A stretch of DNA of 50,189 nucleotides, taken from contig CAYQQI010000001.1 of the NCBI GenBank assembly GCA_964419595.1, positions 1 through 50,189 on the forward strand, read 5' to 3'. Under the pieces are notes generated by a model. The model saw only the letters and a list, made by a program, of their open reading frames with translations. It was not told where the DNA came from and did no database searches. The stretch's first letter is position 1. Every line of letters starts with the position of its first letter. Origin of the DNA: an uncultured Candidatus Saccharibacteria bacterium (GTDB taxonomy: Bacteria > Patescibacteriota > Minisyncoccia > Phycocordibacterales > UBA2100). Shown here piece by piece: positions 5,522 to 36,383 of the stretch. The position numbers were made by a program, and so were the translations under genes.

Positions 5522-6613
5522 TTACTCGCCCCGCGATCGTGCCGCTTTGAGCGCCTCCAGGCATTCGTTCCTCTCCTCTGCAGACACTTTCGTACACAGT
5601 GTTCCGGCTTCAATACCCTTTCCGTAATTAATGTATTTTTCAAGCATTCCTGAAACGCAGGATACGCGGTCAAGACGGTCGGAGAGTCCAAGACAAAGCC
5701 GCTCCACCTGCGCGTAGTCCTCAAGATTTTCCTGTATGACCGCACCGTCGTTCCCGAGGCCGTTGAAACAATACGACCGCGCCAAACCGCTGAGCGTTCC
5801 GCACGCCCGGGCGCCTTCCTCGCGTATGTATTCAGGCGACACAGCTGATGTTTCGTTCAGATGCAGGCCGGTCAAAAAAGCGAAACAGGCGCGTTGATAC
5901 GGCGCTGCATATGTTGAACAGGGGTAGAGGTAGTCGTTTGCATCGGTATGAACAGAGGGTTCGTGAAATTTGACCGATAGATCGGAACCGAAACTTTCCA
6001 TGAATACACCGCGAAAACAGCTATCACGACGCGTCCCGCTTGCCATCTTTTCGCAGACCGAAAGGCTTTTCGACACGTCCGAGGTCGCAAGGAACAGGAC
6101 GTGGCCGATGCCGTGGCACAATTGTCCGGATGCGTCGCAGTATTTGCTTCCCGCGCCACGAATTATTTCATCATCCGCATGCACCAGGTCTTCCGTAGCG
6201 GCAAGGCCGGGCGCAGAAGACATAGACTCGGCAATAACACCGTGCAAGCATCCTGAGCCGCATATCGGACTGCACGCGGCGAGCGCAGACTCAATGGAAC
6301 CCTCTTGTCGGGCGAGTGACTCTCCGATGATATGACCGATACTGTGACAATTCGACGCGAGCGCTCGCGCTGATGTGCTTGCGCTCGCATACGCCAATAT
6401 TTCCGCCGCGGAATGTGCCGGTAACAAATCGTGCAGCGTGCTCGTGAGGCACGAAGCATTCGGCGCGGCGTACGCTGATGGTGTCGCAAAACATCGAGAC
6501 AATGATCGGAGAGATCGTCCGTCCTTCATTTCAGTGTATCGAACGCCGCACACGACGATTGCCACACAAACAACCGCAGTGCCTATCAGCAGCAGGGAGC
6601 GGGACATCCTCAT
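5522..6613 (-). CDS. membrane-anchored Cys/His-rich repeat protein (paralog family, copy 1)
   Basis: Trimmed to MRMSRSLLLIGTAVVCVAIVVCGV (TM anchor). It has repeated motifs CHSIGHIIGE, CGSGCLHGV, CHGIGHVLF, SCFRGVF and YCFNGLG. Its ATG overlaps the stop of the upstream small ORF (ATGA). Confidence 0.75.
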   Translation of the reverse strand: MRMSRSLLLIGTAVVCVAIVVCGVRYTEMKDGRSLRSLSRCFATPSAYAAPNASCLTSTLHDLLPAHSAAEILAYASASTSARALASNCHSIGHIIGESLARQEGSIESALAACSPICGSGCLHGVIAESMSSAPGLAATEDLVHADDEIIRGAGSKYCDASGQLCHGIGHVLFLATSDVSKSLSVCEKMASGTRRDSCFRGVFMESFGSDLSVKFHEPSVHTDANDYLYPCSTYAAPYQRACFAFLTGLHLNETSAVSPEYIREEGARACGTLSGLARSYCFNGLGNDGAVIQENLEDYAQVERLCLGLSDRLDRVSCVSGMLEKYINYGKGIEAGTLCTKVSAEERNECLEALKAARSRGE

Positions 6614-6810
6614 GGCCTGCCATCTGTACGGTGTTTGTACTCCCGCAGCAGGTGGATGATGACCGCGATAAACACGATCACCCACAGGATTTGCCACATC
6701 ATCTTGATCAGAGTGAGATGCTCCGATAGGAATACCTGCATGGGTAGGAGGTGTGCCGGTGCATTTCCGGTGAGCGCTTTCAGTGCAATGATCGGCGTCG
6801 ATGTATTCAT
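6610..6810 (-). CDS. small single-pass membrane protein coupled to the HTTM gene (copy 1)
   Basis: MNTSTPIIALKALTGNAPAHLLPMQ...WQILWVIVFIAVIIHLL is homologous by eye to 25404..25592 (MNTPLLILKDLQGNDPVSLTPLQ...). It occupies the same position downstream of an HTTM-like gene. Confidence 0.65.
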   Translation of the reverse strand: MNTSTPIIALKALTGNAPAHLLPMQVFLSEHLTLIKMMWQILWVIVFIAVIIHLLREYKHRTDGRP

Positions 6811-6819
6811 ACGGAGATA

Positions 6820-8244
6820 TTAGTCGCGGTACTTATTTTCTACAGGGTATCCGACGAGCGGTGCTTCGGGGGGTAATTTAATCCACTCGTTATGTACGAA
6901 CGGCATGTATTCAAGAGCGCACATATCAGGTTCGTTGATCATACGGTAAAACGGTCCGCCGTTGACCGAGTGCTCGAATACGAGTGCCACTTTTTGGACG
7001 CCTTCCAATGCGCACGCATGTTGTATCCTTGTCCACCAGTCATACGGATCGCAGCGATAGAGCGACGAGCCTGATTCATACGTTGTCTCGCGGATACGCA
7101 CCCCACCCTGCGTCGTCGTCTTTGATTGAACGACGCAGTATAAGTCTGTGCATGGTGTCCCGGCCTCGACTTCCATATCGGCTTGATACTGGATCGTGTC
7201 GGTGAGCGGGTCCGAATACACTTTCTGAGAAATTATGCACTGGTGATTTGCCTCAAACATGAACATGCCGTAGCGGTTGCCTTCGAGCGTCATGATGCGC
7301 TCCTCCGCGGGCACGACGAATCCGAGTATTTGAAATGCGCAAATGAATGCGACGATCGCCCAACCCGCGATGGCGCGAAGCGCAAACGGCGTCGGAGTGT
7401 AGCGGTAGAACAGTCCGAAGAGGATCAGCAGTGGAGGAAGCGCCACGCTCGGATACATGTAGTACACAAACAAGCCCGAGTACAGGTGAAAGACGGTGAA
7501 AAACACCAGTGCGATGCGTTGTCGAATTCGATACTTCGAAAGCAGGAACCAGCACCCTACGATTTGAGAGAATATGACGAGGTTGGTAAAGAGCGGGGTA
7601 ACCATCTTCGGTATGAGCGGAAGTCCGTTTTGTAATGAGGTAAAGTACGTTCCAAGGATCCATGTCGAGTCGAGCTTGATGGTCGCGGATACGAAGTAAC
7701 ACACGACGAAAACGATCTTCAAAAAGTATTCCTTGAACGGGACAAAAAGCAGGACCGCCGTCAGGTACAAATGGTAGTAGAAGTACGGCGCATTGATCGA
7801 ATAGGAGAACATAAAGACGACGAGCGCTTCCCACAGAAAAAGAGCGGTCATGAGTGCGTGTGCACGCGTCCACCATTGCTTCCACATGCACCACACGATC
7901 AGATACATCATCGCGTAGAGCACCATATAGAAAATACTCTTGCCGTAGTTCTCTGTCATCCCCGGCAGGAAAAAGAAGTCGGTACAATTCTGGAAATGTG
8001 GCCAGCAATTGGCGGTGCCGCGCGCTACACTCTGAGTCGTTGCGACTGACGTCTTAAGCCACTCGTCGAATACCAGCAAGAAAAACAGGAGCGATGCACC
8101 GAAATACCATTGCAGTGTTTTATTCTCGCGTATTTCTCCGATCGAGAAGACACGCTCGTATGTCATTGCCGCAGTCGCAAACATTCCTTTCATGAAGCGG
8201 GTTACGGACGACCCCGACTCTCTCAACATTGCGCCAGTATACAT
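6820..8244 (-). CDS. HTTM / vitamin K-dependent gamma-carboxylase-like polytopic membrane protein (copy 1)
   Basis: A multi-TM N-terminal half contains SATIKLDSTWILGTYF. It is followed by YGMFMFEANHQC and a soluble C-terminal domain (ALVFEHSVNGGPFYRMINEP) that recalls the VKGC lumenal region. The ORF-track start at 8331 is GTG. I trimmed to the ATG at 8244 (MYTGAM) by alignment with the paralog; 8229 and 8193 are also possible. Confidence 0.6.
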   Translation of the reverse strand: MYTGAMLRESGSSVTRFMKGMFATAAMTYERVFSIGEIRENKTLQWYFGASLLFFLLVFDEWLKTSVATTQSVARGTANCWPHFQNCTDFFFLPGMTENYGKSIFYMVLYAMMYLIVWCMWKQWWTRAHALMTALFLWEALVVFMFSYSINAPYFYYHLYLTAVLLFVPFKEYFLKIVFVVCYFVSATIKLDSTWILGTYFTSLQNGLPLIPKMVTPLFTNLVIFSQIVGCWFLLSKYRIRQRIALVFFTVFHLYSGLFVYYMYPSVALPPLLILFGLFYRYTPTPFALRAIAGWAIVAFICAFQILGFVVPAEERIMTLEGNRYGMFMFEANHQCIISQKVYSDPLTDTIQYQADMEVEAGTPCTDLYCVVQSKTTTQGGVRIRETTYESGSSLYRCDPYDWWTRIQHACALEGVQKVALVFEHSVNGGPFYRMINEPDMCALEYMPFVHNEWIKLPPEAPLVGYPVENKYRD

Positions 8245-8300
8245 GTGAATGTTGCTTCGTTTGAAGTCCTCAAATACCCCTCGTGCTAAACTCGATTGCA

Positions 8301-9668: not shown

Positions 9669-9671
9669 TGC

Positions 9672-10556
9672 TTAGTATTTTGAATCTACCGAAAGCTGTT
9701 TCTCGAATTCTACGACCGGCAGACGATAGATCTGATCTTTCCCGTATTGCGCTCTCACACCCCCCTTCGCTACCTTGGTAAGTGACAAGATCTTCTCATA
9801 TCCGTGGTACTTGGGTCGCGGTTTTAAAAGCGGGAATTCCCACTGAAAAACGAGTCGTTTCAACGTGTAGACACTGGTTCGCTGCCTGAAGACGTCCGGA
9901 TGCTGCAGCGCGAATTTGTTCGCCGGCAACCGCAGATACGACAGGCAGAGCTCGGGCGTGCTGAACATAAAATACGGAACATGTCCCTGCGTGTTGCGCT
10001 CGATCCAGTCAAACGGGACCTTGTACCCCGCATTAAATTCAAGGAATATATCATCGGGCGCGAGAGTAACTTTTTCGCGGTCGATATCGTAGTATTGTTC
10101 GCCGCCCGCGATGACCGCGATGCCCCCCAAACTCTCAGCGATCTCCATCAATTTGATCTGCAGGTACCGTATCAGGTAAAAGGACACGAATCCTTTTTGG
10201 AGATACGCGGGGATCTCGTTCCGGAAAAAATTCTCCATGTCGACCGAGACGATCTTCTGGTGCACGCCGTGTTTCCTGCACCAGTTTCGCGCGTACGCTA
10301 TGTCGTGCTCGTTGGTACCGCTCGCGTGCCGCAGGGTGAGAACAGAGAAATTAATACCCTGGTCAAAGAATGCATGACACATAACCTCGCTATCAATGCC
10401 ACCCGAGGAACAAAGCCACAGTGGTCTGTCTGCACGGGAGGCGATAGCGAGCGCGGAGGCACGCATCTCCTCTTTCCAGCTTGCGGGCTTTCGCGTGCAC
10501 GGGCGAAATCGGGTGCAGAATGATGAGTCGGTACGCTTGAATTCGATCGCCGGCAT
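9672..10556 (-). CDS. PP-loop ATP pyrophosphatase superfamily protein (adenine-nucleotide alpha-hydrolase fold)
   Basis: LWLCSSGGIDSEV is an SGGxDS PP-loop motif near the N-terminus. ATG 10556 was chosen; GTG 10565 is an alternative. Confidence 0.7.
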   Translation of the reverse strand: MPAIEFKRTDSSFCTRFRPCTRKPASWKEEMRASALAIASRADRPLWLCSSGGIDSEVMCHAFFDQGINFSVLTLRHASGTNEHDIAYARNWCRKHGVHQKIVSVDMENFFRNEIPAYLQKGFVSFYLIRYLQIKLMEIAESLGGIAVIAGGEQYYDIDREKVTLAPDDIFLEFNAGYKVPFDWIERNTQGHVPYFMFSTPELCLSYLRLPANKFALQHPDVFRQRTSVYTLKRLVFQWEFPLLKPRPKYHGYEKILSLTKVAKGGVRAQYGKDQIYRLPVVEFEKQLSVDSKY

Positions 10557-10564
10557 GGCCACCA

Positions 10565-11872
10565 CTATACCGCACCGGATTCATCGAGAACGATCTTGGA
10601 TTTACCCCGAGGCAGTCGGGGGATAGATGCTACGGCTGCGAGAATGACATTAACTTCCGGTCCCATGAGCGCTTGAATCTTTTCGCGTATTTGGCCCTCG
10701 ACGAGCGTATTGAATGCCGGGGTCGGTATGATTCTCACCTCGAGCTCAGTATCCGATCCCTTGACGATCAGATATCGGAAAATGAACGGCGAGAACATTT
10801 GCATAAGTTCACTGAACTCAAATTGGTGGAACCTTCTCGGACCGAATGTGAGCATGGCCGAGTATCGCCCGGTGATCCACACTCGCTGCGACTGAAGCCC
10901 GCATGCACATTTCTCCCACGAAACATGCCCGCGATCCCCGGTATCGTAGCGAACGAACGGCATTTCGTAGTTGTACAGGTCGGTGATCACGATCTTGCCG
11001 CTCATTCCCTCAGGCACAGGATCACCGCTGCTATCGACTATCTCTACAATGCACGACTCTACGTACACGTGGAACCCGTCATGCGCACTACAATCCATAC
11101 CGATCGTACCGAGCTCCTCCAGACCGTAGCGATTGTAGACAGTGCAGTGCAATTGTTCTTCGATCAGTTGACGCGCGGCAGGGTAGAGCCGCTCACTTCC
11201 TGACACGGCGTACTTTGGTCGCGGTCCTGTACCGCTCTTTTGCACTTCGAGCGCGAGCTCTTCAAGGAATGACGCATGGCCCTCGATCACATACGGCCGG
11301 AACGCGATAAGCTCTTCGATGGCCGCTTTCGGGTCCGTGAACAGTTGGTCGGCAAATATAACCAAAGCATTCTCTCTCACGAGCGGCAACACGCGAAGGT
11401 ACGCAACACGTGCCCATGTGGTACTCATATGCCAAAGCCGCTCCTCCATAAGGAATCGGTACTGCATAAAGTCCACGTACAGGGGCATTCCTGTCGTGAT
11501 AAGTCGTCGGAGCGCAGTAAAAGGCATTCCGCTCGTGCCGGAGGTTGTGACCCACTTACCGACCGGCGGGAATGTCGAGATCGTATATTCGGATACCGAT
11601 CGACCCCGGAAGGTATCTTTATTCGTGACCGGGAGTTTTGCGAGGTCGTCGATCGTGACAATACCCGGAGAGCCGACGCCACGTGTTTGTAGGGTATTTC
11701 TGAACAGGATGATGTTCTTCTCCAGTACCGCAACTAATTCCCGCAGTTTTTTCTCCTGCCATCTTACAATGTAGGCACGATCCTTTTTATAAACGTTCCT
11801 AAAACGGTAAAAATTGTAGAAGTAACGTAGCTTTTGTCGAACAGTAAGACGTTTCAGATAGTTCAGAGCCAT
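10565..11872 (-). CDS. PaaK / F390 synthetase-like adenylate-forming enzyme (copy 2)
   Basis: VTTSGTSGMPFTAL, VRYDTGDRG and CACG motifs are present. It aligns by eye with 8301..9668. Confidence 0.75.
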   Translation of the reverse strand: MALNYLKRLTVRQKLRYFYNFYRFRNVYKKDRAYIVRWQEKKLRELVAVLEKNIILFRNTLQTRGVGSPGIVTIDDLAKLPVTNKDTFRGRSVSEYTISTFPPVGKWVTTSGTSGMPFTALRRLITTGMPLYVDFMQYRFLMEERLWHMSTTWARVAYLRVLPLVRENALVIFADQLFTDPKAAIEELIAFRPYVIEGHASFLEELALEVQKSGTGPRPKYAVSGSERLYPAARQLIEEQLHCTVYNRYGLEELGTIGMDCSAHDGFHVYVESCIVEIVDSSGDPVPEGMSGKIVITDLYNYEMPFVRYDTGDRGHVSWEKCACGLQSQRVWITGRYSAMLTFGPRRFHQFEFSELMQMFSPFIFRYLIVKGSDTELEVRIIPTPAFNTLVEGQIREKIQALMGPEVNVILAAVASIPRLPRGKSKIVLDESGAV

Positions 11873-11881: not shown

Positions 11882-13516
11882 TTATGCAGGTCGCTTTAAG
11901 CAATAGAGCTCGTTCGCGACCGTACGCGCAAAGATGCAGTGCGACGCTTCGTTGTAGGCAATTTTACTCATGATGCGCTCACTTGCCTGGAAGTATCCCA
12001 CCTGTGTCCCGTGTTCCGCACTCACCTCATACAGACATCCGTCATTCGAACCGATAAAAACGGACGGTCCCACGACGACAGGGGAGCCGAATATGCGCCC
12101 GCGGGTAAGAAACTGCCAGCGAAGCTTTGAGGAGCCGATATCTATTGCGTACAGTGTCTTATCGAGCGAGGCCACGTAGACCGTGTCGTTGTGCACGAGC
12201 GGTATGGAGTAGAGCGCCGCGCCCGTCTCATACGCGTAAATAGGCATGCCGTCGCGTGCACCGAATGCGTAGAGTTTTCCGTCCATCGACGTGAAGAACA
12301 CGATCCTCTGTTTCGCAGCATAGGCCGGCGCAACTTTAAGATCTCCTTGAGTGGCGTTTCGCCAGCGCAATGCACCGGTGATGGCATCGTAGGCATAACT
12401 GATACCGTCGTTACTACCGATCGCGACCATGCTTTCCTCTTTTATATAGAGCGGTGAGCCGTGCGTCATAGCCGCGGTTGTGTGTTGCCAGCGCATGCGG
12501 CCCGACAGCATGTCGAGCGCGACGATGCCGCCTTGCTTACGGAAGAGTCCGAATTCTAATCCGATGAACAGCAATCCGAGTTCGGGTGCCAGTGAAGGAG
12601 ATGAACCGATCCAGTCCGCATCATCGTAGCGCCACTTTTCCTTGCCTGTCCTGGAATCCAGTGCGTAGACGACTCCGTCGTACGCACCGAAATACAACAC
12701 ACCGTTGTGTATCGCAGGCGTTGAAAGAATACCTTTCCCGTCGGAGTGCTTTCCCACGTTGAACTCCCACACGACGTCACCCGTTTTCTGATCGAGTGCT
12801 CGCATGGTGCCGTCGTCACATCCGAGGAACACAAGTGAGTCGTCAATGACAGGTGCGGATTTCTGAACCACAAGGTGATAGCTCGGGTTCGGACCGGTAT
12901 AGCGCCATACGAGTTGAAGTTGAACGTTCGTTTCGATTTTTTTCTCCTGCAGGAGCGGTATACCGAAATCTTCAAGGGTGAATATGTGTCTGATCGAGGC
13001 GCCCCTGGTGCTCAATCGTTGGTAAGACTCAGGCTCACGGAATGCGAGTAGGACGAATACGTCGGTGACCGAACAGCCGGCGTCGGAAAGAATAGTCATC
13101 TGCTTCTCGAGGGTGGATCCGCTGTTGATGAGGTCATCGACGAGGACAATCGGCTCATCGGTAAGAGTACCCTCTATCTGTTTCATCAATCCGTGTCGTT
13201 TACGCGATTTTCGTATGAAAAAACCGTTGATAGGCGTTCCGCGTTCCGCTCCTTTCATCACGATAGCCGCGATGAGCGAGATGCCCGCGGTTTCCATTGC
13301 GCCCACTTGGAACGGGAGTTTGTCCGCGTATTGTTCCCAAAATATCTCTGCGTAACGGTTCAGCCATTTTGCCTGCAGCATGAGGGCGCGGAAATCAAAG
13401 AGCCACTCCTCGCGTTTGCCCGTCACCTCCGAACCTACGATCACGGCACCCTCTGAGCGCTGCACGAATGCGGTTGATTCGATTGCGCGTCGCAGGTCCT
13501 CGTATCCGTTCGTCAT
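11882..13516 (-). CDS. type I phosphoribosyltransferase (OPRT-like) fused to a PQQ-like beta-propeller repeat domain (copy 1)
   Basis: The N-terminus has LFDFRALML, GISLIAAIV, FFIRKSRKRHG and the PRPP loop IVLVDDLINSGSTL. The C-terminal ~350 aa has repeated ...G.VYFG..DG.LYALD..TG...W modules. Confidence 0.75.
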   Translation of the reverse strand: MTNGYEDLRRAIESTAFVQRSEGAVIVGSEVTGKREEWLFDFRALMLQAKWLNRYAEIFWEQYADKLPFQVGAMETAGISLIAAIVMKGAERGTPINGFFIRKSRKRHGLMKQIEGTLTDEPIVLVDDLINSGSTLEKQMTILSDAGCSVTDVFVLLAFREPESYQRLSTRGASIRHIFTLEDFGIPLLQEKKIETNVQLQLVWRYTGPNPSYHLVVQKSAPVIDDSLVFLGCDDGTMRALDQKTGDVVWEFNVGKHSDGKGILSTPAIHNGVLYFGAYDGVVYALDSRTGKEKWRYDDADWIGSSPSLAPELGLLFIGLEFGLFRKQGGIVALDMLSGRMRWQHTTAAMTHGSPLYIKEESMVAIGSNDGISYAYDAITGALRWRNATQGDLKVAPAYAAKQRIVFFTSMDGKLYAFGARDGMPIYAYETGAALYSIPLVHNDTVYVASLDKTLYAIDIGSSKLRWQFLTRGRIFGSPVVVGPSVFIGSNDGCLYEVSAEHGTQVGYFQASERIMSKIAYNEASHCIFARTVANELYCLKRPA

Positions 13517-14870: not shown

Positions 14871-15617
14871 TTAATCCTCAGCAACGTTCCCGGCATGAAT
14901 CGATGTGTCCTTACAAAGCGTTATCGTGTGAATCGATTGTTCGTTCTCCTCGTCGAGATCAAGGAGTTCCGCAATGACCGCATCGTCGAATCCGGCATAG
15001 GGGCGAACATTCAACCGGAGCGCACTTCCCACCAGCAGCATGTTTTCACTCATGTGTCCGGCCTCAAGCAGCGTATGGATATAGGACAACTCACCGTACT
15101 TTGCAGATGAGCGCTTCCATACGCCGGTGAAAACGATCAGCCCGGACAGTGACAACCACTCCGGGTGTCTGGCGATACTTTTCATGTCGAATTGCGGCGG
15201 GAGGTCCCACAAGCGCTCGAGCGCGTGTTTCGAGGGATTATAGTGGAACACCGCAGGACTTTGCGATTCCACCGCGTTTGATATCAGGTATGACTCAACC
15301 GGATAGAGTGCTCCGCCGGAAGGATAGTTTCTATTCGTCACACCGTCGCGTTTTCGAAGTGCAGAGCCGAAGAGTGTGCCGAGTTCCCGAAGTGAGATAG
15401 CGATGCCGGCATCGCCTTCGTGTCCGGAGATCCGGCTATCCAGTGCCTCCTGAAGTGTTGTTGTGAGTACATCCGGCTGCGGGAGCGAGATGCATTGCAT
15501 ACGAGGATATGCTTTGTGGACCCCTCGCGGGACCTCTTCCGGTCGGTGGGTTGCACCTTTTCTGGTGAGGCGAGTGCGCCGCAACTCCATATGCAAGCGG
15601 GATAAAAAAGAGCTCAT
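14871..15617 (-). CDS. SagB-type dehydrogenase (nitroreductase fold), pair 1
   Basis: YPSGGALYPVESYL, FHYNPSKHALERLW, SAKYGELSY (Lys-Tyr motif) and LLEAGHMSENMLL are present. Its ATG overlaps the YcaO stop (ATGA at 15617..15614). Confidence 0.85.
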   Translation of the reverse strand: MSSFLSRLHMELRRTRLTRKGATHRPEEVPRGVHKAYPRMQCISLPQPDVLTTTLQEALDSRISGHEGDAGIAISLRELGTLFGSALRKRDGVTNRNYPSGGALYPVESYLISNAVESQSPAVFHYNPSKHALERLWDLPPQFDMKSIARHPEWLSLSGLIVFTGVWKRSSAKYGELSYIHTLLEAGHMSENMLLVGSALRLNVRPYAGFDDAVIAELLDLDEENEQSIHTITLCKDTSIHAGNVAED

Positions 15618-28506: not shown

Positions 28507-29235
28507 ATGGATTTTTCCGAGTTCTTCCACATCTCCTCAAAGGACGCCACGGGTGCGGGTGAACTTCGGATACCGCTTGATCCCAAAGAGTGGCCCGAAT
28601 CATGGAGCACGATAGAAACGAAAACATATACGCGTTTGCCGAAGATCTCTCTTCCCGAGACCGACCCGAAAGCGGACCACTTTGCGCTCATTCGTGATCG
28701 CAGATCCCGCTTTGCGTTCACGAGCGAACCGTTGACGCTAGAGGCAATGAGCACGTTGCTCAGGTATTCATGCGGTCTCTTTTTTCAAGACGATGTAGCC
28801 ACACACAGGGCGCAACCCTCCGCGGGCTCGAGGTATCCGATCGAACTCTATCCGATCGTACTTCGCGGGAACGATGCGCTCGCGTCCGGCGTGTACCATT
28901 ACAACGTTGATCATCATCGTCTTGAGCTGCTCTGGAGCCGCACATTTTCGCCGGAAGAGAAGCGGGCACTCGTAACGCACGAGAATATCGACGACGCCGC
29001 GTGTCTGCTCGTGATGAGTGCCACCTTCGATCGAACGAAACGTAAATACGGCGAGCGAGGATACCGATACATCATGCTTGAGGCGGGACATATCGGGCAG
29101 AATGTATGTTTGGCGGCAACCCACCTCAACCTCTCGTGCTGTCCGCTGGGAAATACACGCGACGGCGCTATTGAGACACTGCTGGATATCGACGGTGTGA
29201 ACGAGTCCGTGGTCTACGCAACGCTGATCGGGTAA
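28507..29235 (+). CDS. SagB-type dehydrogenase, pair 3
   Basis: GSRYPIELYPIVL, YHYNVDHHRLELLW, KRKYGERGYRYIMLEAGHIGQN and CCPLG are present. Confidence 0.8.
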   Translation: MDFSEFFHISSKDATGAGELRIPLDPKEWPESWSTIETKTYTRLPKISLPETDPKADHFALIRDRRSRFAFTSEPLTLEAMSTLLRYSCGLFFQDDVATHRAQPSAGSRYPIELYPIVLRGNDALASGVYHYNVDHHRLELLWSRTFSPEEKRALVTHENIDDAACLLVMSATFDRTKRKYGERGYRYIMLEAGHIGQNVCLAATHLNLSCCPLGNTRDGAIETLLDIDGVNESVVYATLIG

Positions 29236-29620: not shown

Positions 29621-31273
29621 TCACGCGGATCTTTTCTTTTGAATACGGTAGATCTCATTGGCGAATGTCGGCAAAAATATTGCATGCGTCGTGGGGTTGT
29701 AGGCGATCACGTTCACGATGCGCTCCGCAGCCTGAAAAAAGCCTCTCTCTTCGCCGGTTTTCGCGTCAAGCTCATACATACGACCGTCATTGCTGCCGAT
29801 ATAGACCGACGAGCCGATTATTGCAGGGGATGCGAATATTCTTCCCATTGTCCTGAATTTCCATCGAATTATGCCGGTCGCCGCACCGATGGCGTAGAAC
29901 TTCTTATCGAGCGATGCCACGTATACCGTGCCCTCGTGTGCAAGCGGGTTCGAATACACCGCTTCGGGTAACTCCACCGCATGTACGAGCGCCCCGGTCT
30001 TTGCATTCAATATATAGAGATGTTTGTCGAACGAGCCAAAACAAACGGTACCGGCTGATTCGTCGAATGAGAAACCTGCACGAACCGCATCTTGTGTCGC
30101 GAATTCCCAGAGCTGGGATCCGGTTTTTGCGTCGAATCCGTACACGGTCCCGCTATTACTCCCGCACACCACAACTGAGAGTTTTTCCGAGACAGAAGGT
30201 GAGGAATGCACCAAGCCGTTCATGGTTTGCTGCCATACTTTTTTCCCGGTCTCGGCGTTCACCGCGAGCAATCCTCCCCGTTTATTCCACAGACCGAATT
30301 CCAGGCCCACGTACACGAGGCCGAACTTTTCCGATACTGCCGGTGATGAGCCGACCCAGTCGGCCTCCATACTTACCCAGGCACGGGAACCGTCACGCGT
30401 CTTCAGCGCGTACAAATTGCCGTCGTACGCACCGAAATACACGAGTCCGAGTTTCTTTGAGAGCGCAGGGGACGAGAAGATGCGCTTGTGCCCGTCACCG
30501 AATTGTATGAGGTATTTCCATACGACTTCGCCGCTTTCCTGATCGAGTGCCCAAAACATGCCGCTGTCCGACCCGAAGTAGAGCTTCGTGTCATCCAATA
30601 CAGGAGCAGATTTCGGGATCACATAAAAATAGTTCGGGTCGGGACTTGCGAATTTCCAGGTGCTCTCGAAGACTGACAGTTCTCCCACGGGTTTGGAAAC
30701 GGGGATGGGGGGATGTGCATCGGGAAAATCTTCTATCGAGAAAAGCGAGTGAACCTCGATCCCTTTTTCCCGGAACAGTTCGTAGAAAGAATCGTCTCTG
30801 AGACGAAGCACTACACAAATAGCACGCACCTCCATGCCGCGCTCTTCAAGTGCCGCGATCTGACGGAGCATGCCCTTACCGGAATTCACGAGATCGTCCA
30901 GTAGTACGACCGGCTCATCAGTAACGACTCCTTCGATCATGTTTTGCATTCCGTCCTTATCCCGGGATTTACGCATGAAAAAACCGTTCATGTTCGTGCC
31001 TGCATCGTGCGCTTTCAACACCACGCCCGCGATCAGGGGAAGCGACGCGGTTTCCAATCCGCCCACTTGAACCTTTCCGTACGGTGCCACGCGTGCGTAC
31101 ATCTCGATTGAGAGTGCGTCGAGCACATCGCTTTGTAACAGTACTCGTCGAAAGTCGAACATCCACGATTGCCGCTCACCCTCACCGGAGTAGAACGCGG
31201 CCTCCTTCGAAGTGACGAATACGCGCTCTTGCAATACCGACTTTAAGAACTGCATACGTGATGACGTTTCCAT
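29621..31273 (-). CDS. type I phosphoribosyltransferase::PQQ-like beta-propeller fusion (copy 2)
   Basis: Trimmed to METSSRMQFLK. MFDFRRVLLQ, FFMRKSRDKDG and the PRPP loop VVLLDDLVNSGKGM are followed by propeller repeats (LVYFGAYDGNLYALKTRDG...). Confidence 0.75.
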   Translation of the reverse strand: METSSRMQFLKSVLQERVFVTSKEAAFYSGEGERQSWMFDFRRVLLQSDVLDALSIEMYARVAPYGKVQVGGLETASLPLIAGVVLKAHDAGTNMNGFFMRKSRDKDGMQNMIEGVVTDEPVVLLDDLVNSGKGMLRQIAALEERGMEVRAICVVLRLRDDSFYELFREKGIEVHSLFSIEDFPDAHPPIPVSKPVGELSVFESTWKFASPDPNYFYVIPKSAPVLDDTKLYFGSDSGMFWALDQESGEVVWKYLIQFGDGHKRIFSSPALSKKLGLVYFGAYDGNLYALKTRDGSRAWVSMEADWVGSSPAVSEKFGLVYVGLEFGLWNKRGGLLAVNAETGKKVWQQTMNGLVHSSPSVSEKLSVVVCGSNSGTVYGFDAKTGSQLWEFATQDAVRAGFSFDESAGTVCFGSFDKHLYILNAKTGALVHAVELPEAVYSNPLAHEGTVYVASLDKKFYAIGAATGIIRWKFRTMGRIFASPAIIGSSVYIGSNDGRMYELDAKTGEERGFFQAAERIVNVIAYNPTTHAIFLPTFANEIYRIQKKRSA

Positions 31274-31337: not shown

Positions 31338-31766
31338 ATGAATCGCACCGTAGGTATCGTGCTCGCAGCTGTGCTCGTGACCGCACTTGCTATCTACCTG
31401 ACGCCGCTTAAGCATGTCGCACTCATTGAGCCCACGATCAACGACATCGATGCCGTGGAGTTCCAGGCAGCCCTTAAGGCGGATCCTGATCGCTACATCT
31501 TTCTTGATGTCAGGCCCGCAGAAGCGTACAACAAACAGCATGCCGAAGGTTCCGTGAGTGCACCCGTGCATACACTCTTCGATCTCCGCCACACGCTTCC
31601 GAAACACGGTAAGGAGATAGTGCTCATCTGTAGCGGGGGACGGGCCTCGGGCGTCGGGTACGGCTACCTCGAACATTTCGGTTTTTTCAACATTGCGCGT
31701 ATCGAAGGAGGCATTGAGGCGTGGCTCACGGCGGGGTTACCCACAGTGCCGGCGCCCGCAAAATAG
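31338..31766 (+). CDS. membrane-anchored rhodanese-domain sulfurtransferase-like protein
   Basis: Trimmed to MNRTVGIVLAAVLVTALAIY. IFLDVRPAEAYNKQHAEGS and the active-site loop LICSGGRASG are present. Confidence 0.7.
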   Translation: MNRTVGIVLAAVLVTALAIYLTPLKHVALIEPTINDIDAVEFQAALKADPDRYIFLDVRPAEAYNKQHAEGSVSAPVHTLFDLRHTLPKHGKEIVLICSGGRASGVGYGYLEHFGFFNIARIEGGIEAWLTAGLPTVPAPAK

Positions 31767-31792: not shown

Positions 31793-32077
31793 ATGGAGCA
31801 ACTGCTGTTTCGAACAATTCGCGTCGCATCGTTCCTCGGACTCGCCGCACTCGCTACACTTCTCACCATGTTTTTCGGTACCTCGCGCTCTGCGAGCAAT
31901 CTGTCCTCCGATGGAGGTTTTACGGGATTCGGCATTCAGTGCGCAAACGCCGATGCGCCGGTTGTTGACACGGGCTGCACCGGCGACGCCGGTTGCGCCG
32001 GTTGCGCCGGCTCAGATTCAGGTTGTTCAGGAGGATGTGACAGCGGCGGCGGCGGTAGCAGCGACGGCTGCGCGTGA
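31793..32077 (+). CDS. candidate RiPP precursor 2: Sec-like signal/anchor plus Cys/Gly/Ser/Asp-only core
   Basis: Trimmed from ORF 31721 to MEQLLFRTIRVASFLGLAALATLLTMFFGTSRSASNLSSDGGFTGFGIQCANADAPVVDTGCTGDAGCAGCAGSDSGCSGGCDSGGGGSSDGCA*. It shares the GG.xG(Y/F).I...A.AP...CTGDA junction with precursor 1. Confidence 0.6.
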   Translation: MEQLLFRTIRVASFLGLAALATLLTMFFGTSRSASNLSSDGGFTGFGIQCANADAPVVDTGCTGDAGCAGCAGSDSGCSGGCDSGGGGSSDGCA

Positions 32078-32084
32078 TTCTCAT

Positions 32085-33185
32085 ATGTCGAAATACATCA
32101 TCGGGGTAGTGATCATACTTGCGGCAGCATTTTTTGGCGTGTGGTACTACATATCCCTACCCCGACCTCTGCAGGATCCCTTCTCCACGCTCTCGATAAA
32201 AAGTGAGAAATTTGCCGAGGCAAATACACTTCATTTCTCCGCGAAGACCCCCGAAGATCAGGCCAAAACCGAGGCTGCATACAAAGCGGCACTCCTCGAC
32301 GCTGATTCTTCGGCCGAGAAGAGTATGGTTGAATTTCGGATCGCTCTGACCGTTGAGCAGCAAGGTAGGTATGTCGAGGCCATTCAACAGCTCAAAATGA
32401 TCGCGGCGAACACTCAGTATCCCGCATTTACACGTGCCTACGCGATACAGGAACTGGGTCTCATGTACTACAATTACGGTTCCCCGGAGATCACAAAAGA
32501 AGTGTTCAGTACACCACCGTACGACGCAATGCAGGCGGAGAGCGGCGCGGTGTCATATCGCCACGTCTTTGAATATGCCTCGTCGATCTATCCGCTCGCT
32601 GCTTCCGAGAGCTTTATTGCGTATTTATATGCAAACGACATGATGAAGCTGTTTAACGCTTCGACTGTTCGACCGCTCACGCCCGAAGAGCAAACTTCGT
32701 ATGAGAGCGCGAAACTCGAGGTTGAAAGGCGACTGGCGAGCGCGGAGCGTGATATCGCGCGACTCGATAAAATGGCGCAAGAGCGATACTACCGTTCGTA
32801 CGCACTCCTGCGCGTTGCCATCGTGCGCGGGCAATTGGCCAGGATGAAGCTTGGTACCGATGAAGCGGCAGAAGCTGCCTTCCAAAAGACCATCGCGATC
32901 ACCGACTACGAAAGCGGCGACGCCGAATCAGCGTTCCCGCGTTTGCACTACGCCTTTTTCCTCTCCAAGCGATACGGTGCCGAGCGAGCGACGGAGATCC
33001 ATGATCTCTTGAGCGCAATTTATACGACGATGGACAAGCGAGCGTATTCCCCGATCATGAAATATTTTGAGGGTGAACGAAAGAGTGTCTACGGAGCAAA
33101 AGCGGATCTCGCGGCGCTCGCCAAAATAGACCCTCAGTTCAAAGTTGCACTCATAAACCTCGGTTGGATAGAGAGCGACTTCTAG
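32085..33185 (+). CDS. membrane-anchored helical protein following precursor 2 (paralog of 17498..18610)
   Basis: Trimmed from ORF 31911 to MSKYIIGVVIILAAAFFGVWYY. It occupies the same position relative to its precursor as 17498..18610. Confidence 0.65.
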   Translation: MSKYIIGVVIILAAAFFGVWYYISLPRPLQDPFSTLSIKSEKFAEANTLHFSAKTPEDQAKTEAAYKAALLDADSSAEKSMVEFRIALTVEQQGRYVEAIQQLKMIAANTQYPAFTRAYAIQELGLMYYNYGSPEITKEVFSTPPYDAMQAESGAVSYRHVFEYASSIYPLAASESFIAYLYANDMMKLFNASTVRPLTPEEQTSYESAKLEVERRLASAERDIARLDKMAQERYYRSYALLRVAIVRGQLARMKLGTDEAAEAAFQKTIAITDYESGDAESAFPRLHYAFFLSKRYGAERATEIHDLLSAIYTTMDKRAYSPIMKYFEGERKSVYGAKADLAALAKIDPQFKVALINLGWIESDF

Positions 33186-33186
33186 C

Positions 33187-33864
33187 ATGAAGGAAGGCAC
33201 GAGGCGGCGTTGGCCCCGAAATGCGGTGCGAACCGGTTTGTTTCTGTTCACGATTGCGATACTGGTGTTCGCAGCGATGTACGTGCGCGGAACCGGCACG
33301 GAAACTGTTGCAGGAGGGCCGGTGCCGCCGATCGTTCCCGGGGATCATATACAAGGCGAACGCACGGCACCGGTGCAGTTGATCGTGTACACCGATATGG
33401 AGTGTCCGCATTGCAAAGCGCTGCATCTCTCCACCATTCCGCGCCTCCTGTCTGAATTCGGGACATCGACGTACGTGATCGCATACCGCCACTTTCCGCT
33501 CGCGTCGCATCTGCGCGCGCCACTTGAAGCGGCTGCGACCGAATGTGCGGCGAGATATGGCGAAAAGTATTTCTGGCTCTACGTTGAGCAGATATTCAGA
33601 GAAACAAAGTCCAACGACGCGCTCGAGCCGGCACGCTTACCGGAGATCGCCGATGAACTGGGTCTCCCGAAAAGTGCGTTCGAGCGCTGCCTGGAGCGAC
33701 CGGATCGGATGGAGCGTGTGCTGCACGATATTTCCGAGGCACTTCGAGCAGATGTAGCCATAACCCCGACTATATTTGTAGGTCGCGGTAATGAGATGAT
33801 ACGGGTAAAGGGAAATTCGTACGCGCAGCTTTCGAGCGCGACGGAGCTTCTCTTGTCCGAGTAA
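33187..33864 (+). CDS. DsbA-like thiol:disulfide oxidoreductase (thioredoxin fold, CPHC)
   Basis: It has an N-terminal TM helix. LIVYTDMECPHCKALH is the active site, and the C-terminal part is DsbA-like (ITPTIFVG). Confidence 0.75.
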   Translation: MKEGTRRRWPRNAVRTGLFLFTIAILVFAAMYVRGTGTETVAGGPVPPIVPGDHIQGERTAPVQLIVYTDMECPHCKALHLSTIPRLLSEFGTSTYVIAYRHFPLASHLRAPLEAAATECAARYGEKYFWLYVEQIFRETKSNDALEPARLPEIADELGLPKSAFERCLERPDRMERVLHDISEALRADVAITPTIFVGRGNEMIRVKGNSYAQLSSATELLLSE

Positions 33865-33868
33865 CCGT

Positions 33869-34669
33869 ATGCATGTCCGATCTACACGACGCTTCGTCTT
33901 TTCCGCATCAGTACTGGCGGTCGGCGTACTGTGCCTGGGGTATGTTGCATGGCCGCATCTCGTTCAATTAGGAGAGCGGGCTATATTCTCGATGTATCCG
34001 GAAGCAGAGCGGGCATATTCATACGGCGAGCGTCATTTCGATGGGAGGTACCCGCGTGCGTACAACATTCGTGTTGCGCACTATTATTTTTCCGAGGCAC
34101 TCAAACTGAACCCGGACATGCCGCTCGTCAAACACCAACTCGCCCGAGTCGCATTTCTGGAAAATAAGCTCTATCTCGCGCTCGAATTGATCAATCAAGA
34201 AATACGGGACAACCCATCTCCGAGTCCGTCCTCCTACTATATACGCGGACTCATTCTGGGCTACCTCGAAGAGTTCGATAGCGCCGCAGAGTCGTATCGC
34301 GTGTACGTGGATTCGGCCCCACCGAACTGGGCAGGGTTCACCGACTATGCGTGGGTGCTCTCGATGGCGGGTCGATACGAAGATACGCTTGACATTACAA
34401 GTAGAGGCTTGATGTATTTTCCCGAGAATCCGTGGCTCTTGAATACCCGTGCAAGCGCGCTCGCGGAGCTCGGACGCTATGAAGAGGCACTCGATGCGGT
34501 GTCGCGCGCCAAGGAATACGCAACCGCTATCACGGAAGAAGCGTGGTCTACGTACTATCCCGGCAATGACCCGCGTATCGCGCAAACCGGCATCAAAACC
34601 TTTCGCGATTCCATCGACTCCAATTTCCACATGATATCGCTTGAAAGGGACAAGCAGGCAAAACAGTAG
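33869..34669 (+). CDS. membrane-anchored TPR-repeat protein (copy 3)
   Basis: KHQLARVAFLENKLYLALELINQEIRDNPS, YYIRGLILGY and FTDYAWVLSMAGRYEDTL align with copies 1 and 2. Confidence 0.75.
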   Translation: MHVRSTRRFVFSASVLAVGVLCLGYVAWPHLVQLGERAIFSMYPEAERAYSYGERHFDGRYPRAYNIRVAHYYFSEALKLNPDMPLVKHQLARVAFLENKLYLALELINQEIRDNPSPSPSSYYIRGLILGYLEEFDSAAESYRVYVDSAPPNWAGFTDYAWVLSMAGRYEDTLDITSRGLMYFPENPWLLNTRASALAELGRYEEALDAVSRAKEYATAITEEAWSTYYPGNDPRIAQTGIKTFRDSIDSNFHMISLERDKQAKQ

Positions 34670-34688
34670 GCTATACTGAAGCGACTAT

Positions 34689-35951
34689 ATGAAGACCATC
34701 CGCAGGAATGCAGGGCATGTGCTTCAGCTCCTCAAACAGCTTCGCGTGTTTCGCGCGCAGCGCGACAACATGTTGGTGGCAATCGGAGTACTGGCGCTCA
34801 TCGGCGCATTTTCGATGAATCCCGCCACCATCAATTCAAGCGAAGCAAAATTCTCGGATACGACGGCGCAGGGGTTCATGATCGTGCCCGCATCGTGTCC
34901 GTCGAATCCCCACAGTGCATCTGAATGTGCAGTTCCGCCGGCTCCCACCGGCTTGCGTATCACGTGTAATGCGGCTGGAACAAGTGCGACGATAAATTAC
35001 AATCCGACGCCGAATGCGACCAGCTATCTCTTTCGTGTCGATAGACAAGATAATCCGTGGCTTCCACTCTTTTGCGACGGTCGCATGAACGATACGAGAC
35101 CCGGGGATATCTGTACTGCACCACTTGCAGTATCCTCGTGGACATTCACGGTCACACCGGACAAGCCGTACGGTATCTGGATGCACGGCGTGAATGCAAA
35201 CGGCAACGGACCGGGTACGGGCATTGCATTTTCCTGTCCGTCGCCGGCAAACCAGTGTCCCAACGGTATGGATATTACGGTGTACCCGACATGTATGTGT
35301 CCGGCCGGAAAGATCCAGGTAGGGATCACGTGCGTTGATCCGCCGATCGTATGTCCGAACGGACTCAACATTTCGCTCTACCCCTCGTGCGTTTGTCCGG
35401 CACCTCAGGTTCAGAGCGGCTCGATCTGTGTTCCGCCTCCTCCCGGTACAGGCGCATATCCTCCGGTAACGCTCTCGTATGTCGAGTCGTATCCGCCGAA
35501 CTCGTGCTGGGATGGCTCATCCCCGGATCCGTCGGACGGCAACTGTCCGCCGTGTCCTTCGGGTTACACCCAAGTCGGCAACACCTGTGTACCGCCGGAT
35601 CTCAACCCGCACTTCGTCGGATTCCCGACAACAAAGGGCTTCAACGCGAGCGGTCACTTGGAAGTGCGCCCGTCGCTCGTGCGCTCCGGCGACAAAACGT
35701 GGGTGTACTGGAATGTATCAAACGTACGCGATTGCACGGTGCGCGGAACGAACGGCGACGGTCAGTCGGGCGGGGTATGGAACGGATTGGGCTCGGGAGC
35801 CGCCGGAGTGGAAACGAGTGCAATCACAAGCCGCACCGAATACACACTCTTCTGCCGCTCACGAGTCGGCGGAACACCTGCTACGATAACAGAGACGCGC
35901 AGCGTCAACGTGATACCGACATGGTACGAACCGTCGGGCCAGCAAGACTAA
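34689..35951 (+). CDS. membrane-anchored or secreted Cys/Pro-rich protein with tandem Cys modules
   Basis: The TM anchor is MLVAIGVLALIGAF. An FN3-like stretch (APTGLRITCNAAGTSATINYNPTPNATSYLFRVD) is followed by the repeated module CPNG..I..YP.C.CPA...Q.G..CV.PP. Confidence 0.7.
   Translation: MKTIRRNAGHVLQLLKQLRVFRAQRDNMLVAIGVLALIGAFSMNPATINSSEAKFSDTTAQGFMIVPASCPSNPHSASECAVPPAPTGLRITCNAAGTSATINYNPTPNATSYLFRVDRQDNPWLPLFCDGRMNDTRPGDICTAPLAVSSWTFTVTPDKPYGIWMHGVNANGNGPGTGIAFSCPSPANQCPNGMDITVYPTCMCPAGKIQVGITCVDPPIVCPNGLNISLYPSCVCPAPQVQSGSICVPPPPGTGAYPPVTLSYVESYPPNSCWDGSSPDPSDGNCPPCPSGYTQVGNTCVPPDLNPHFVGFPTTKGFNASGHLEVRPSLVRSGDKTWVYWNVSNVRDCTVRGTNGDGQSGGVWNGLGSGAAGVETSAITSRTEYTLFCRSRVGGTPATITETRSVNVIPTWYEPSGQQD
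35256..35447 (+). repeat. two tandem 96-nt (32-aa) Cys-module repeats inside CDS 34689..35951
   Basis: The repeats are CPNGMDITVYPTCMCPAGKIQVGITCVDPPIV and CPNGLNISLYPSCVCPAPQVQSGSICVPPPPG. A third degenerate unit (CPPCPSGYTQVGNTCVPPD) lies downstream. Confidence 0.6.
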
Positions 35952-35954
35952 CAT

Positions 35955-36383
35955 ATGATCACTTCAATTAAGTTCGCGGCAGTAGTAGCCCTCGTGGTAC
36001 TCCCGTTCACCGTTGGCGCTCAGTCGGTCGGACTCACAGAGGCGATACGCGCGGAGATATTGAAAGACCCGCGCTCAGCTTCTATCCCCACACCGCAGGT
36101 GGATGCGATGGTCGCCTCACTTGCCCAGGCCGCAGCACAGCAGGGAGTGACCGAGTCCGACATAACCTGGCGACCGGCTGTGGCCGATACGGGTACCTCC
36201 GGGGAGTGCGGCTTTTTCTGCTCCATCAATGAAATCTTCGGTTTCGGCGGTAACGACTACACCATTCCGCTCGGGCTCGGTATAACCTCGGCCCTCCTTA
36301 TATTGTTCATCAGCATGATGCTACATCGGCACCACAAACACGGTATCGACCCGACCGTCGAGGCTATCCATACGCACTCCTGA
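35955..36383 (+). CDS. hypothetical exported protein with a C-terminal TM anchor
   Basis: The signal peptide is MITSIKFAAVVALVVLPFTVGAQS. The C-terminal helix is GLGITSALLILFISMML, followed by HRHHKH. Confidence 0.6.
   Translation: MITSIKFAAVVALVVLPFTVGAQSVGLTEAIRAEILKDPRSASIPTPQVDAMVASLAQAAAQQGVTESDITWRPAVADTGTSGECGFFCSINEIFGFGGNDYTIPLGLGITSALLILFISMMLHRHHKHGIDPTVEAIHTHS

Follow-up and report, generated by a model that had tools for sequence, protein, structure and literature searches.

A gene block between rpsJ and rplC in Paceibacteria/Parcubacteria with a predicted YcaO/SagB module for the maturation of small membrane-anchored peptides

The stretch of DNA considered here, the window, comprises 50,189 nucleotides (positions 1 to 50,189 of contig CAYQQI010000001.1, assembly GCA_964419595.1). 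In it, ~31 kb separate rpsJ and rplC, the genes for ribosomal proteins S10 and L3. To judge from the genes it carries, the most likely role of the intervening block, the island, is the conversion of Cys/Ser/Gly/Asp-rich tails on small membrane-anchored proteins into azole-containing peptides. We consider it probable that the island is a vertically inherited block of Paceibacteria/Parcubacteria splitting rpsJ from rplC, and that its core is a peptide-maturation module of the thiazole/oxazole-modified microcin (TOMM) or linear azole-containing peptide (LAP) type. A first-pass annotation of the window had reported a YcaO/SagB island of 31 genes at this position; the plausible genes between rpsJ and rplC number 33. 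The direct evidence consists of gene content, motifs, folds, synteny, and precursor architecture. The genes of the core are as follows.

11882–13516, minus strand: PRT_PQQ_A, an OPRT-like phosphoribosyltransferase (PRTase) fused to a PQQ-type beta-propeller
14871–15590, minus strand: SagB_A, an FMN dehydrogenase of the SagB family (TIGR03605, 106 bits, cutoff 78)
15614–17053, minus strand: YcaO_A, a predicted stand-alone YcaO cyclodehydratase ending in PHPFS (PF02624, E 1.5e-43)
17167–17478, plus strand: pre_A, precursor with a basic N-terminus, a membrane helix, a VAHAEAP motif, and a 43-aa Cys/Gly/Ser/Asp core
17459–18610, plus strand: X_A, a membrane-anchored all-helical protein, always following the precursor
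22626–23366, minus strand: SagB_B (TIGR03605, 105 bits)
23363–24799, minus strand: YcaO_B, 50% identical to YcaO_A, ending in PHPFS
26907–28358, minus strand: YcaO_C, divergent, 25% identical to YcaO_A and YcaO_B, ending in PHPFP
28507–29235, plus strand: SagB_C (TIGR03605, 133 bits)
29621–31273, minus strand: PRT_PQQ_B, 41% identical to PRT_PQQ_A
31793–32077, plus strand: pre_B, the second precursor, with an ANADAP motif and a 38-aa core with 6 Cys
32085–33185, plus strand: X_B, a paralog of X_A, directly after pre_B

The three YcaO proteins match PF02624 at E 3e-41 to 8e-50. With the curated SagD-family model TIGR03604 they score 165–178 bits (E 1e-48 to 1e-52; YcaO_A, 171 bits), under the cutoff of 219, which marks them as a diverged subfamily. 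The three SagB proteins score 105–133 bits with TIGR03605, above its cutoff of 78. Across 36 YcaO homologs, E115/E118/R119 and E235/E238/R239 (the ExxER pairs) and P475-H-P477 are invariant. We take the ExxER pairs to be the ATP/Mg-binding site and the C-terminal P-H-P to be the PxPxP hallmark of azoline-forming YcaOs. The SagB Lys-Tyr motif is likewise kept in 87–88 of 88 homologs, and the catalytic motifs of both families appear to match those of azole-forming enzymes. The annotation of three YcaO and three SagB proteins has thus passed both hidden Markov model (HMM) and motif tests.

The nearest solved YcaO structures are the cyanobactin heterocyclases LynD, MusD, and TruD, found both by sequence profile (E about 3e-11) and by Foldseek. 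The AlphaFold2 (AF2) model of YcaO_A has a predicted local distance difference test score (pLDDT) of 93 and aligns to LynD over 464 columns for a 479-residue query (TMq 0.71, E 3e-23); therefore, the modelled YcaO_A has no extra N-terminal recognition domain. The McbD structure also matches the model (6gos_D, Foldseek E 2e-14). At least 200 YcaO relatives are found at E ≤ 1e-5. The 120 listed are 43–63% identical, and, among the matches listed, the organism-bearing source names are all Parcubacteria, Kaiserbacteria, Pacebacteria, or Minisyncoccota.

The two small proteins that had been described as homologous, with Cys/Gly/Ser/Asp tails, are members of a true precursor family, with 23 members from 20 loci recovered beside X homologs. 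These proteins are roughly 100 aa long and share one layout: after a basic N-terminus come a hydrophobic helix with a conserved G-F at its centre, a linker of some 15–25 residues, the motif G-x-G-V-A-H-A-D-A-P, and the core. The cores, of 26–71 residues, differ wholly in sequence from genome to genome. Their composition does not: G (34%), S (19%), D (14.5%), C (13%), and A (10%) together make up about 90%, basic and hydrophobic residues are nearly absent, and Glu amounts to 0.8%. The median core has 6 Cys, and Gly precedes Cys in 65 of 141 cases. On sequence grounds, the pairing of a conserved leader with a hypervariable core marks a ribosomally made and modified peptide (RiPP). The precursor genes are adjacent to YcaO and divergent from it, a layout kept across genomes whose YcaOs are only 35–64% identical. 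The earlier reading of YcaO, SagB, and a Cys/Ser-rich peptide as an azole-forming signature is supported. The leader was also considered as a type IV prepilin signal, given its conserved G-F; this was rejected, as hydrophobic residues lie on both sides of G-F and there is no Glu at +5.

Two further proteins are closely tied to this core. The X proteins (366–383 aa, two paralogs), which the first-pass annotation lacked, directly follow each precursor and belong to the most conserved part of the system. No Pfam or NCBIfam family matches them, and a word-based homolog search returned 5 proteins only. With hhalign, X gave a weak match to the TPR proteins of the island (probability 12%, P 0.002), and there was no match between X and the island's Cys/His-rich (CH) proteins or between CH and TPR. 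The two PRTase::beta-propeller fusions (PRT-PQQ) were confirmed by HMM: the TIGR00336 pyrE domain is found at 1.5e-18, below cutoff, and the PRPP loop hhhDDhhN(S/T)Gx(T/S) is conserved in 37–38 of 38 homologs.

The system recurs far beyond the window. A YcaO-alignment scan over one genome per species (GTDB) gave 77 loci, on which the island proteins were mapped by tblastn. Forty of these have a YcaO at least 35% identical to the query and, with loci L005 and L006, make up 42 close loci of the candidate phyla radiation (CPR). SagB is paired with YcaO in 42/42, PRT-PQQ is found in 30/42, TPR in 30/42, and X in 27/42. The remaining families are less frequent: HT, the HTTM-like membrane protein discussed below, in 17/42; g142, encoded next to rplC, in 13/42; CH in 12/42; rhodanese in 10/42; the PaaK-like ligase in 9/42; DsbA in 8/42; the CxxC membrane protein in 8/42; and the PP-loop protein in 5/42. 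Gene-neighbourhood co-occurrence, which had been proposed as a check, is seen in these loci. Either rpsJ or rplC is within reach in 24 of the 42 loci. The recurrent order is rplC ← g142 ← (g420) ← TPR ← (rhodanese ← DsbA) ← X ← precursor, followed divergently by YcaO → SagB → (HT → stm) → PRT-PQQ → (CxxC / PaaK PaaK PP-loop / CH) ... rpsJ, where stm is the small partner of HT. Complete rpsJ...rplC brackets of 11–17 kb occur in L009, L019, L038, L039, L061, and one JGI contig. Outside the CPR, 13 loci (Nitrospinota, Bdellovibrionota, Actinomycetes, and others) have only YcaO, with SagB in 11 of 13; PRT-PQQ, TPR, X, and rpsJ/rplC linkage are found in none of the 13.

The conserved Paceibacteria/Parcubacteria layout indicates that the block is old and vertically inherited, and the complete brackets in several genomes indicate that the clade has long had rpsJ and rplC split. 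In the window, the system is present in an expanded, triplicated version with three modules. Paralog identities across the island are 25–61% and the layout recurs across species-level genomes, in keeping with the earlier suggestion of an old, internally duplicated system rather than a recent transfer. Among the record titles of L007–L083, many read "uncultured Candidatus Saccharibacteria", that of L026 reads "Methanosarcinales", and that of L057 "Bathyarchaeia"; the genes present fit Parcubacteria-type loci, so the titles or bins look unreliable. In one genome, a gene for a fused ATP-sulfurylase/APS-kinase is found at the system's edge (L006:21184-21437), a possible sulfur link or a coincidence.

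We infer that azoles are formed and that the product is exported and cleaved, and we infer every role given to an accessory protein, as follows. The substrate would be the precursor of ~100 aa, with its basic N-terminus, membrane helix, VAHADAP motif, and acidic hypervariable Gly/Ser/Cys/Asp tail. The stand-alone YcaO, with ATP, would cyclodehydrate Cys (probably Ser too), mostly after Gly, to azolines, and the SagB flavoprotein would oxidise the azolines to azoles. The PRTase::beta-propeller, which lies beside SagB in most loci, is the best candidate to substitute for an E1-like partner or RiPP recognition element (RRE); alternatively, it may add a phosphoribosyl-derived group. Leader charges, read by eye, suggest an N-in, C-out orientation. 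The modified tail would then be displayed outside, either anchored or released near AHA/DAP, where a classical signal-peptidase site between AHA and D is possible. Outside the cell, the tail would encounter X, TPR, DsbA, CxxC, and rhodanese, all of them anchored in the membrane. Hydropathy is consistent with this division: YcaO, SagB, PRT-PQQ, PaaK, PP-loop, and a serine hydrolase have no membrane segments, and the precursors, X, TPR, CH, DsbA, rhodanese, g420, g142, HT, CxxC, and stm have an N-terminal anchor or signal or several helices. HT, stm, the PaaK-like ligases, the PP-loop ATPase, and CH are viewed as facultative, separable envelope modules, which may or may not act on the same peptide.

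Several points weigh against this proposal. The azoles on the tail are a prediction from gene content, and the roles given to PRT-PQQ, X, TPR, and CH are guesses. The YcaOs miss the curated SagD cutoff (165–178 against 219 bits). Most azoline-forming YcaOs need an E1-like, Ocin-ThiF, or RRE partner, and no island protein has a ThiF, E1-like, Ocin-ThiF, or RRE match in Pfam or NCBIfam. If the precursor were inserted into the membrane co-translationally, the tail would be put beyond the reach of the cytoplasmic enzymes. To our knowledge, a membrane helix in a RiPP leader is unprecedented. The AHA/DAP site lies about 20 residues past the helix, farther than a classical signal-peptidase site, a placement unlike that of the AxA sites in g142, s97, and s106. 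A third precursor was sought in the window for YcaO_C/SagB_C, and only two leader-motif open reading frames were found for three enzyme pairs. Finally, some cores hold just 2–3 Cys. In the precursors of L020, L039, and L013, the cores are long simple repeats, (DSGS)n or (ADSx/ADAG)n, or a D10 run, with 2–3 Cys at the extreme end; here, the Cys-containing C-terminus may be the functional part. An AHAD-motif precursor beside a C-type YcaO/SagB pair (L005:18031-18276, minus strand) has a Gly/Thr/Ser/Ala-rich core with 0 Cys, a hint that enzymes of the divergent YcaO_C type may be confined to Ser or Thr.

The usual genes of such pathways had been reported as absent, and the island is indeed without a detectable leader peptidase, ABC exporter, or immunity gene, in addition to lacking the recognition partners just named. 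Its other components include two HTTM-like proteins with their small partners, as follows.

6610–6810, minus strand: stm_A, a 66-aa partner of HT_A with one membrane pass; the NCBI record has a gene call for it
6820–8244, minus strand: HT_A, a multi-pass membrane protein with the vitamin K gamma-carboxylase (HTTM) fold (AF2 pLDDT 87.9, and Foldseek)
25404–25592, minus strand: stm_B, the small partner of HT_B
25594–26901, minus strand: HT_B, a GGCX-fold paralog, 40% identical to HT_A

Two claims had been made about these proteins. The first, that each HTTM-like gene is coupled to a small transmembrane protein, holds: both stm genes are encoded straight after the HT genes, and a single-pass stm of roughly 65 aa follows HT in 35 of the 45 metagenome loci with enough downstream sequence. 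The second, that the proteins are HTTM/VKGC-like, stands at the level of fold and not at that of sequence profiles. When the HT_A model was searched against the PDB with Foldseek, human GGCX accounted for each of the top 14 matches, at E 2e-6 to 7e-5 and a TMq of about 0.5. The alignment, of about 430–510 columns at 13–15% identity, spans membrane and lumenal parts, and GGCX is the only significant PDB match. The HTTM/VKGC call thus appears right for the modelled fold, though the HMMs fail. Neither HT_A nor HT_B has a Pfam hit at E up to 10 (HTTM and VKG_Carbox included) or a significant NCBIfam hit, and no GGCX came up when the HT family was searched as a sequence profile against the PDB. Among 42 HT homologs scanned one by one with Pfam, a single marginal match appeared, to VKGC_lumenal_dom (E 0.069). 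The HT family has 339 relatives at E ≤ 0.001, and the organism-bearing source names all belong to the same CPR clade; 0 of the 120 relatives listed carry a Pfam domain. K171, K190, H129, and H253 are invariant.

The link of HT to YcaO is looser than the reverse link. Fourteen metagenome HT loci have at least 4.5 kb on both sides; YcaO or SagB lies within 7 kb of HT in only 4 of these, other system-specific genes are present in 9, and none were detected by tblastn in 4. One such "solitary" locus still holds diverged PaaK-like ligases next to HT. An HT homolog (P0225, 427 aa; L084:8001-9284) is solitary, between a CTP synthase gene and a serine recombinase gene with a restriction-modification set. 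On a JGI contig (3300056388), a complete system between rplC and rpsJ includes a DCC1-like thiol-disulfide oxidoreductase (PF04134), of a family which we take to be often linked to HTTM proteins. The occurrence of HT and stm without YcaO nearby suggests that the island probably combines a core module for the peptide with envelope modules that can be separated from it. HT-stm is read as one separable module sharing the neighbourhood, often accompanied by the PaaK pair, PP-loop, and CH.

An alternative, which we regard as unlikely, is that all ~33 genes act on one peptide. HT and stm would modify the exported Asp-rich tail at the outer face of the membrane, e.g., by carboxylation, the DsbA and CxxC proteins would handle thiols or redox, and the PaaK and PP-loop enzymes would add further groups. 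In many loci, HT-stm does sit immediately between SagB and PRT-PQQ, the sole fold match of HT is to GGCX, and the DCC1-like oxidoreductase and DsbA/CxxC co-occur with HT. Moreover, GGCX substrates are acidic, propeptide-tethered peptides, a parallel to the membrane-tethered acidic tail. However, HT is present in only 17 of the 42 close loci, and 10 of the 14 well-flanked metagenome loci have HT without YcaO/SagB within 7 kb, to which the solitary genomic context is added. The cores are nearly Glu-free (0.8%), and by a rough hand count their Asp content is equal in loci with and without HT. CPR bacteria also usually lack quinone synthesis. A broader proposal, and quite an unlikely one, would make the island a Paceibacteria-wide housekeeping system. 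Its leader would be a membrane anchor, the PRTase::beta-propeller would replace E1/RRE for YcaO/SagB, and a prokaryotic GGCX relative would modify the exported acidic azole tail at the outer face of the membrane, to give these episymbionts a hypervariable surface peptide for metal binding or host attachment. The reading of a TOMM/LAP-type core with separable modules is retained in what follows.

The other genes of the island are as follows.

5522–6613, minus strand: CH_A, a membrane-anchored Cys/His-rich protein with an N-terminal membrane helix
8283–9668, plus strand: PaaK_A, a PaaK/F390-synthetase-like adenylate-forming ligase, start uncertain
9672–10556, minus strand: a putative PP-loop-like ATPase with an SGGIDS motif
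10565–11872, minus strand: PaaK_B, a PaaK-like ligase (NCBIfam, 1.5e-38)
13582–14859, minus strand: CH_B, a Cys/His-rich membrane-anchored paralog
18733–19053, plus strand: s106, a small secreted 4-Cys protein, not conserved elsewhere
19185–20015, plus strand: TPR_A, a membrane-anchored TPR protein
20033–20800, plus strand: TPR_B, a membrane-anchored TPR protein
20824–22026, plus strand: CH_C, a Cys/His-rich membrane-anchored paralog
22051–22599, minus strand: Ser_hydrolase, an alpha/beta hydrolase (PF06821, 4.5e-17)
24880–25407, minus strand: CxxC, a 4–5-pass membrane protein with a conserved GCAxCG inside a helix
29239–29532, plus strand: s97, a small protein after SagB_C with a Sec signal and 6 Cys in its 51-aa mature part
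31338–31766, plus strand: a membrane-anchored rhodanese (PF00581, 1e-13)
33187–33864, plus strand: a membrane-anchored DsbA-like thioredoxin (PF13462, 1e-17)
33869–34669, plus strand: TPR_C
34689–35951, plus strand: g420, a membrane-anchored Cys-rich protein
35955–36383, plus strand: g142, with a signal peptide and a membrane helix at the C-terminus; in related loci, it is always the gene next to rplC on the upstream side

The three TPR proteins, the rhodanese, and the DsbA-like protein were confirmed by HMM, and the CxxC motif is read directly inside a membrane helix. The three CH paralogs, also read directly, are mutually 23–29% identical and conserve an H, the motif CHGxGH, and five pairs of Cys with a spacing of about 11 residues. 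Four to six CH copies surround a distant YcaO-SagB pair (28–30% identity) in L054 and L055, which suggests a direct CH-YcaO link in some lineages. HT, CH, X, CxxC, g420, and g142 have nothing usable in Pfam (E up to 10) or NCBIfam. The two PaaK/F390-like ligases were recovered by NCBIfam: PaaK_A matches a DVU_1553-family ligase model at 1e-30, below curated cutoffs, and has CapK_C in the calls of the NCBI record. PaaK_B matches a phenylacetate-CoA ligase of the PDB (1.6e-21). All scores are below equivalog cutoffs, and the two proteins are assigned only to the PaaK-type ANL superfamily, as predicted members. The putative PP-loop ATPase has an SGGIDS motif, but its HMM matches, to ThiI, QueC, TilS, and MnmA, are weak (E about 2e-3 to 4e-3), with no PDB sequence hit. 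Ser_hydrolase lies beside the system in no genome locus other than the window's own contig and in one metagenome locus (L106). The protein s97 was tried as the precursor for YcaO_C/SagB_C and rejected, being a secreted Cys-rich protein outside the precursor family; it is absent from the other loci mapped.

The rhodanese and PP-loop genes allow another chemistry, in which the YcaOs would install thioamides or another backbone modification with sulfur supplied through these two proteins. Secondary HMM matches to the McrA-thioamidation YcaO (E 1e-12 to 1e-15) point the same way. We consider this very unlikely. The SagD-family model scores 165–178 bits against 46–56, the PHP C-terminus is conserved, and SagB, which has no thioamidation role, accompanies YcaO in all 42 close loci. 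No island protein has a Pfam or NCBIfam match to TfuA, and the rhodanese (10/42) and PP-loop (5/42) are infrequent.

Highly improbable, in our estimate, is the proposal that the small Cys/Asp-rich proteins are unmodified, membrane-anchored metal-binding proteins whose place beside YcaO/SagB is incidental. Their Cys/Asp/Gly-rich tails do look like metal-binding sequences, but the divergent arrangement with YcaO is conserved where the YcaOs themselves are only 35–64% identical, and the RiPP pattern is seen in their conserved leader and hypervariable core. The position of the island raises one more possibility, namely that the target of the enzymes is a ribosomal protein or a translation factor, in the way that YcaO of E. 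coli aids RimO on S12, and that the small proteins are unrelated. The linkage to rpsJ or rplC in 24/42 loci and the JGI auto-annotation of homologs as "S12 methylthiotransferase accessory factor" would suit this idea. It is barely credible given a dedicated precursor family divergently beside YcaO, universal SagB pairing, no RimO in the island, and an S12-type YcaO model that matches only one paralog, at E 0.006.

The borders of the island were delimited with public gene calls taken from NCBI record JAKFZD010000010.1 (assembly GCA_021733565.1), as follows.

5097–5459, plus strand: rpsJ (ribosomal protein S10), the left boundary (PF00338 in the gene calls of the NCBI record)
5481–5510, plus strand: a terminator-like hairpin (5481–5500) and T-run downstream of rpsJ
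36414–36515, plus strand: a promoter-like site (36414–36441) and a hairpin with T7 (36488–36515) upstream of rplC
about 36522–37142, plus strand: rplC (L3), the right boundary (matching genes called PF00297 in the NCBI record and in related loci)

These calls support the separation of rpsJ and rplC by a ~31 kb block. The genes rplD, rplW, and rplB come after rplC. To the left (1–5459), rpsJ stands alone, with DUF1697, DUF4260, DUF924, and zinc-ribbon genes upstream and not the usual tuf gene. The claims that rpsJ ends in its own terminator and that rplC has its own promoter and leader fared less well. The hairpin with its T-run and the promoter-like site with its T7 hairpin are present, but counts of such sites are no higher than in shuffled sequence. 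Rfam (at gathering thresholds) and tRNA scans of the window gave no match; therefore, no known r-protein leader precedes rplC. The rplC-proximal hairpin, GGCCCGC-TATG-GCGGGTC with a T7 run, lies 6 bases 5′ of the rplC start codon. The public gene call begins rplC at 36462, 5′ of the hairpin, which looks wrong. The precursor operon is co-directional with rplC and runs into it, and the 36414–36521 element could terminate transcription of g142 or act as an attenuator-type leader to the L3 operon.

The junctions, which had been singled out for a check of chimeric assembly, recur in independent single-run Logan assemblies. In a 14.7 kb assembly of SRR10388246, rpsJ adjoins CH_A, stm_A, HT_A, etc.; in contigs of SRR10388246 (7.8 kb) and SRR10388237 (3.8 kb), retrieved by look-up of TPR_C, DsbA/TPR_C-g420-g142-rplC is followed by rplD. 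Thus, both junctions are reproduced outside the deposited assembly. The layout also recurs in many species-level genomes, so the island is neither a recent transfer nor a chimera. An assembly chimera or recent horizontal insertion, for which the unusual position and nothing else speaks, is already refuted by the independent junction assemblies and the same layout in dozens of species-level genomes, along with flat GC (0.50–0.57 over island and flanks, no step at the borders) and paralogs only 25–61% identical.

Among known pathways, the core appears to resemble that of microcin B17 and other LAPs, but it misses the E1/RRE partner and the curated SagD cutoff. The likeness includes a core rich in Gly, Ser, and Cys, in which the heterocyclisable residues mostly come after Gly, along with a YcaO (McbD) and a SagB-type FMN dehydrogenase (McbC). 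The microcin system consists of the McbA precursor, the McbB/C/D synthetase, and McbEFG for export and immunity; in contrast, the island is without an McbB-like E1/RRE subunit, an ABC exporter, or a pentapeptide immunity protein. Its leader has a membrane helix and VAHADAP, its cores are strongly acidic (14.5% Asp), and it adds PRTase::propeller, X, and TPR partners. Finally, the island is chromosomal and lineage-wide, whereas microcin B17 is encoded by an accessory plasmid operon. LynD, TruD, and MusD carry fused N-terminal E1-like and RRE domains of about 300–400 aa, and the CPR enzymes are bare YcaO domains of 480 aa. The stand-alone YcaOs of bottromycin work without an E1-like or RRE partner, as is proposed here; they differ in that a SagB partner of this type is lacking, the peptide has a follower in place of a leader, and the clusters contain other genes. 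HTTM/VKGC proteins include B. subtilis SdpB of the SdpABC toxin system. Like SdpB with SdpA, HT is paired with a small partner in a peptide-maturation neighbourhood. It differs from GGCX in its candidate substrates, which are Asp-rich and not Glu-rich, in its identity of 13–15%, and in having no significant HTTM/VKGC HMM hit.

Sharrar et al. 2020 (mBio, PMC7298704) reported 110 YcaO-based "LAP" clusters from 93 CPR genomes (51 Parcubacteria), in which YcaO adjoins a nitroreductase and a small Cys/Ser-rich peptide lies nearby. The presence of YcaO/nitroreductase clusters in CPR was therefore already known, and the core has a precedent. Those clusters very likely include the present family. They were described at the antiSMASH level (YcaO, nitroreductase, peptidase), whereas no peptidase was found in the present system, and the paper is without the membrane-helix leader, PRTase::propeller, X, TPR, GGCX-fold partners, or rpsJ-rplC position. 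Nor did we find a description of any of these in the literature. Searches on YcaO with HTTM, CPR with gamma-carboxylase, and YcaO with PRTase and propeller returned nothing, and HTTM with RiPP returned unrelated linaridin work only. The earlier claim that the components other than YcaO, SagB, and the peptide lie outside any described class of the pathway is in keeping with this.

For peptide enzymology, the system offers a YcaO apparently without a canonical recognition partner, with the PRTase::propeller fusion as a candidate new partner, and a leader peptide that is itself a membrane helix. For the vitamin K carboxylase field, it offers a compact GGCX-fold protein from bacteria, together with a defined small partner, in a neighbourhood of peptide-maturation genes. 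The genomes of CPR/Patescibacteria are tiny and encode few biosynthetic pathways that can be recognised, and the window devotes 31 kb to this system. Its fixed place next to ribosomal protein genes across a large clade suggests a central function and constitutive importance. The hypervariable cores, together with repeated duplication, suggest diversifying selection, as in surface or competition molecules, and the variability of the core points to a role at the cell surface, in host contact, or in competition.

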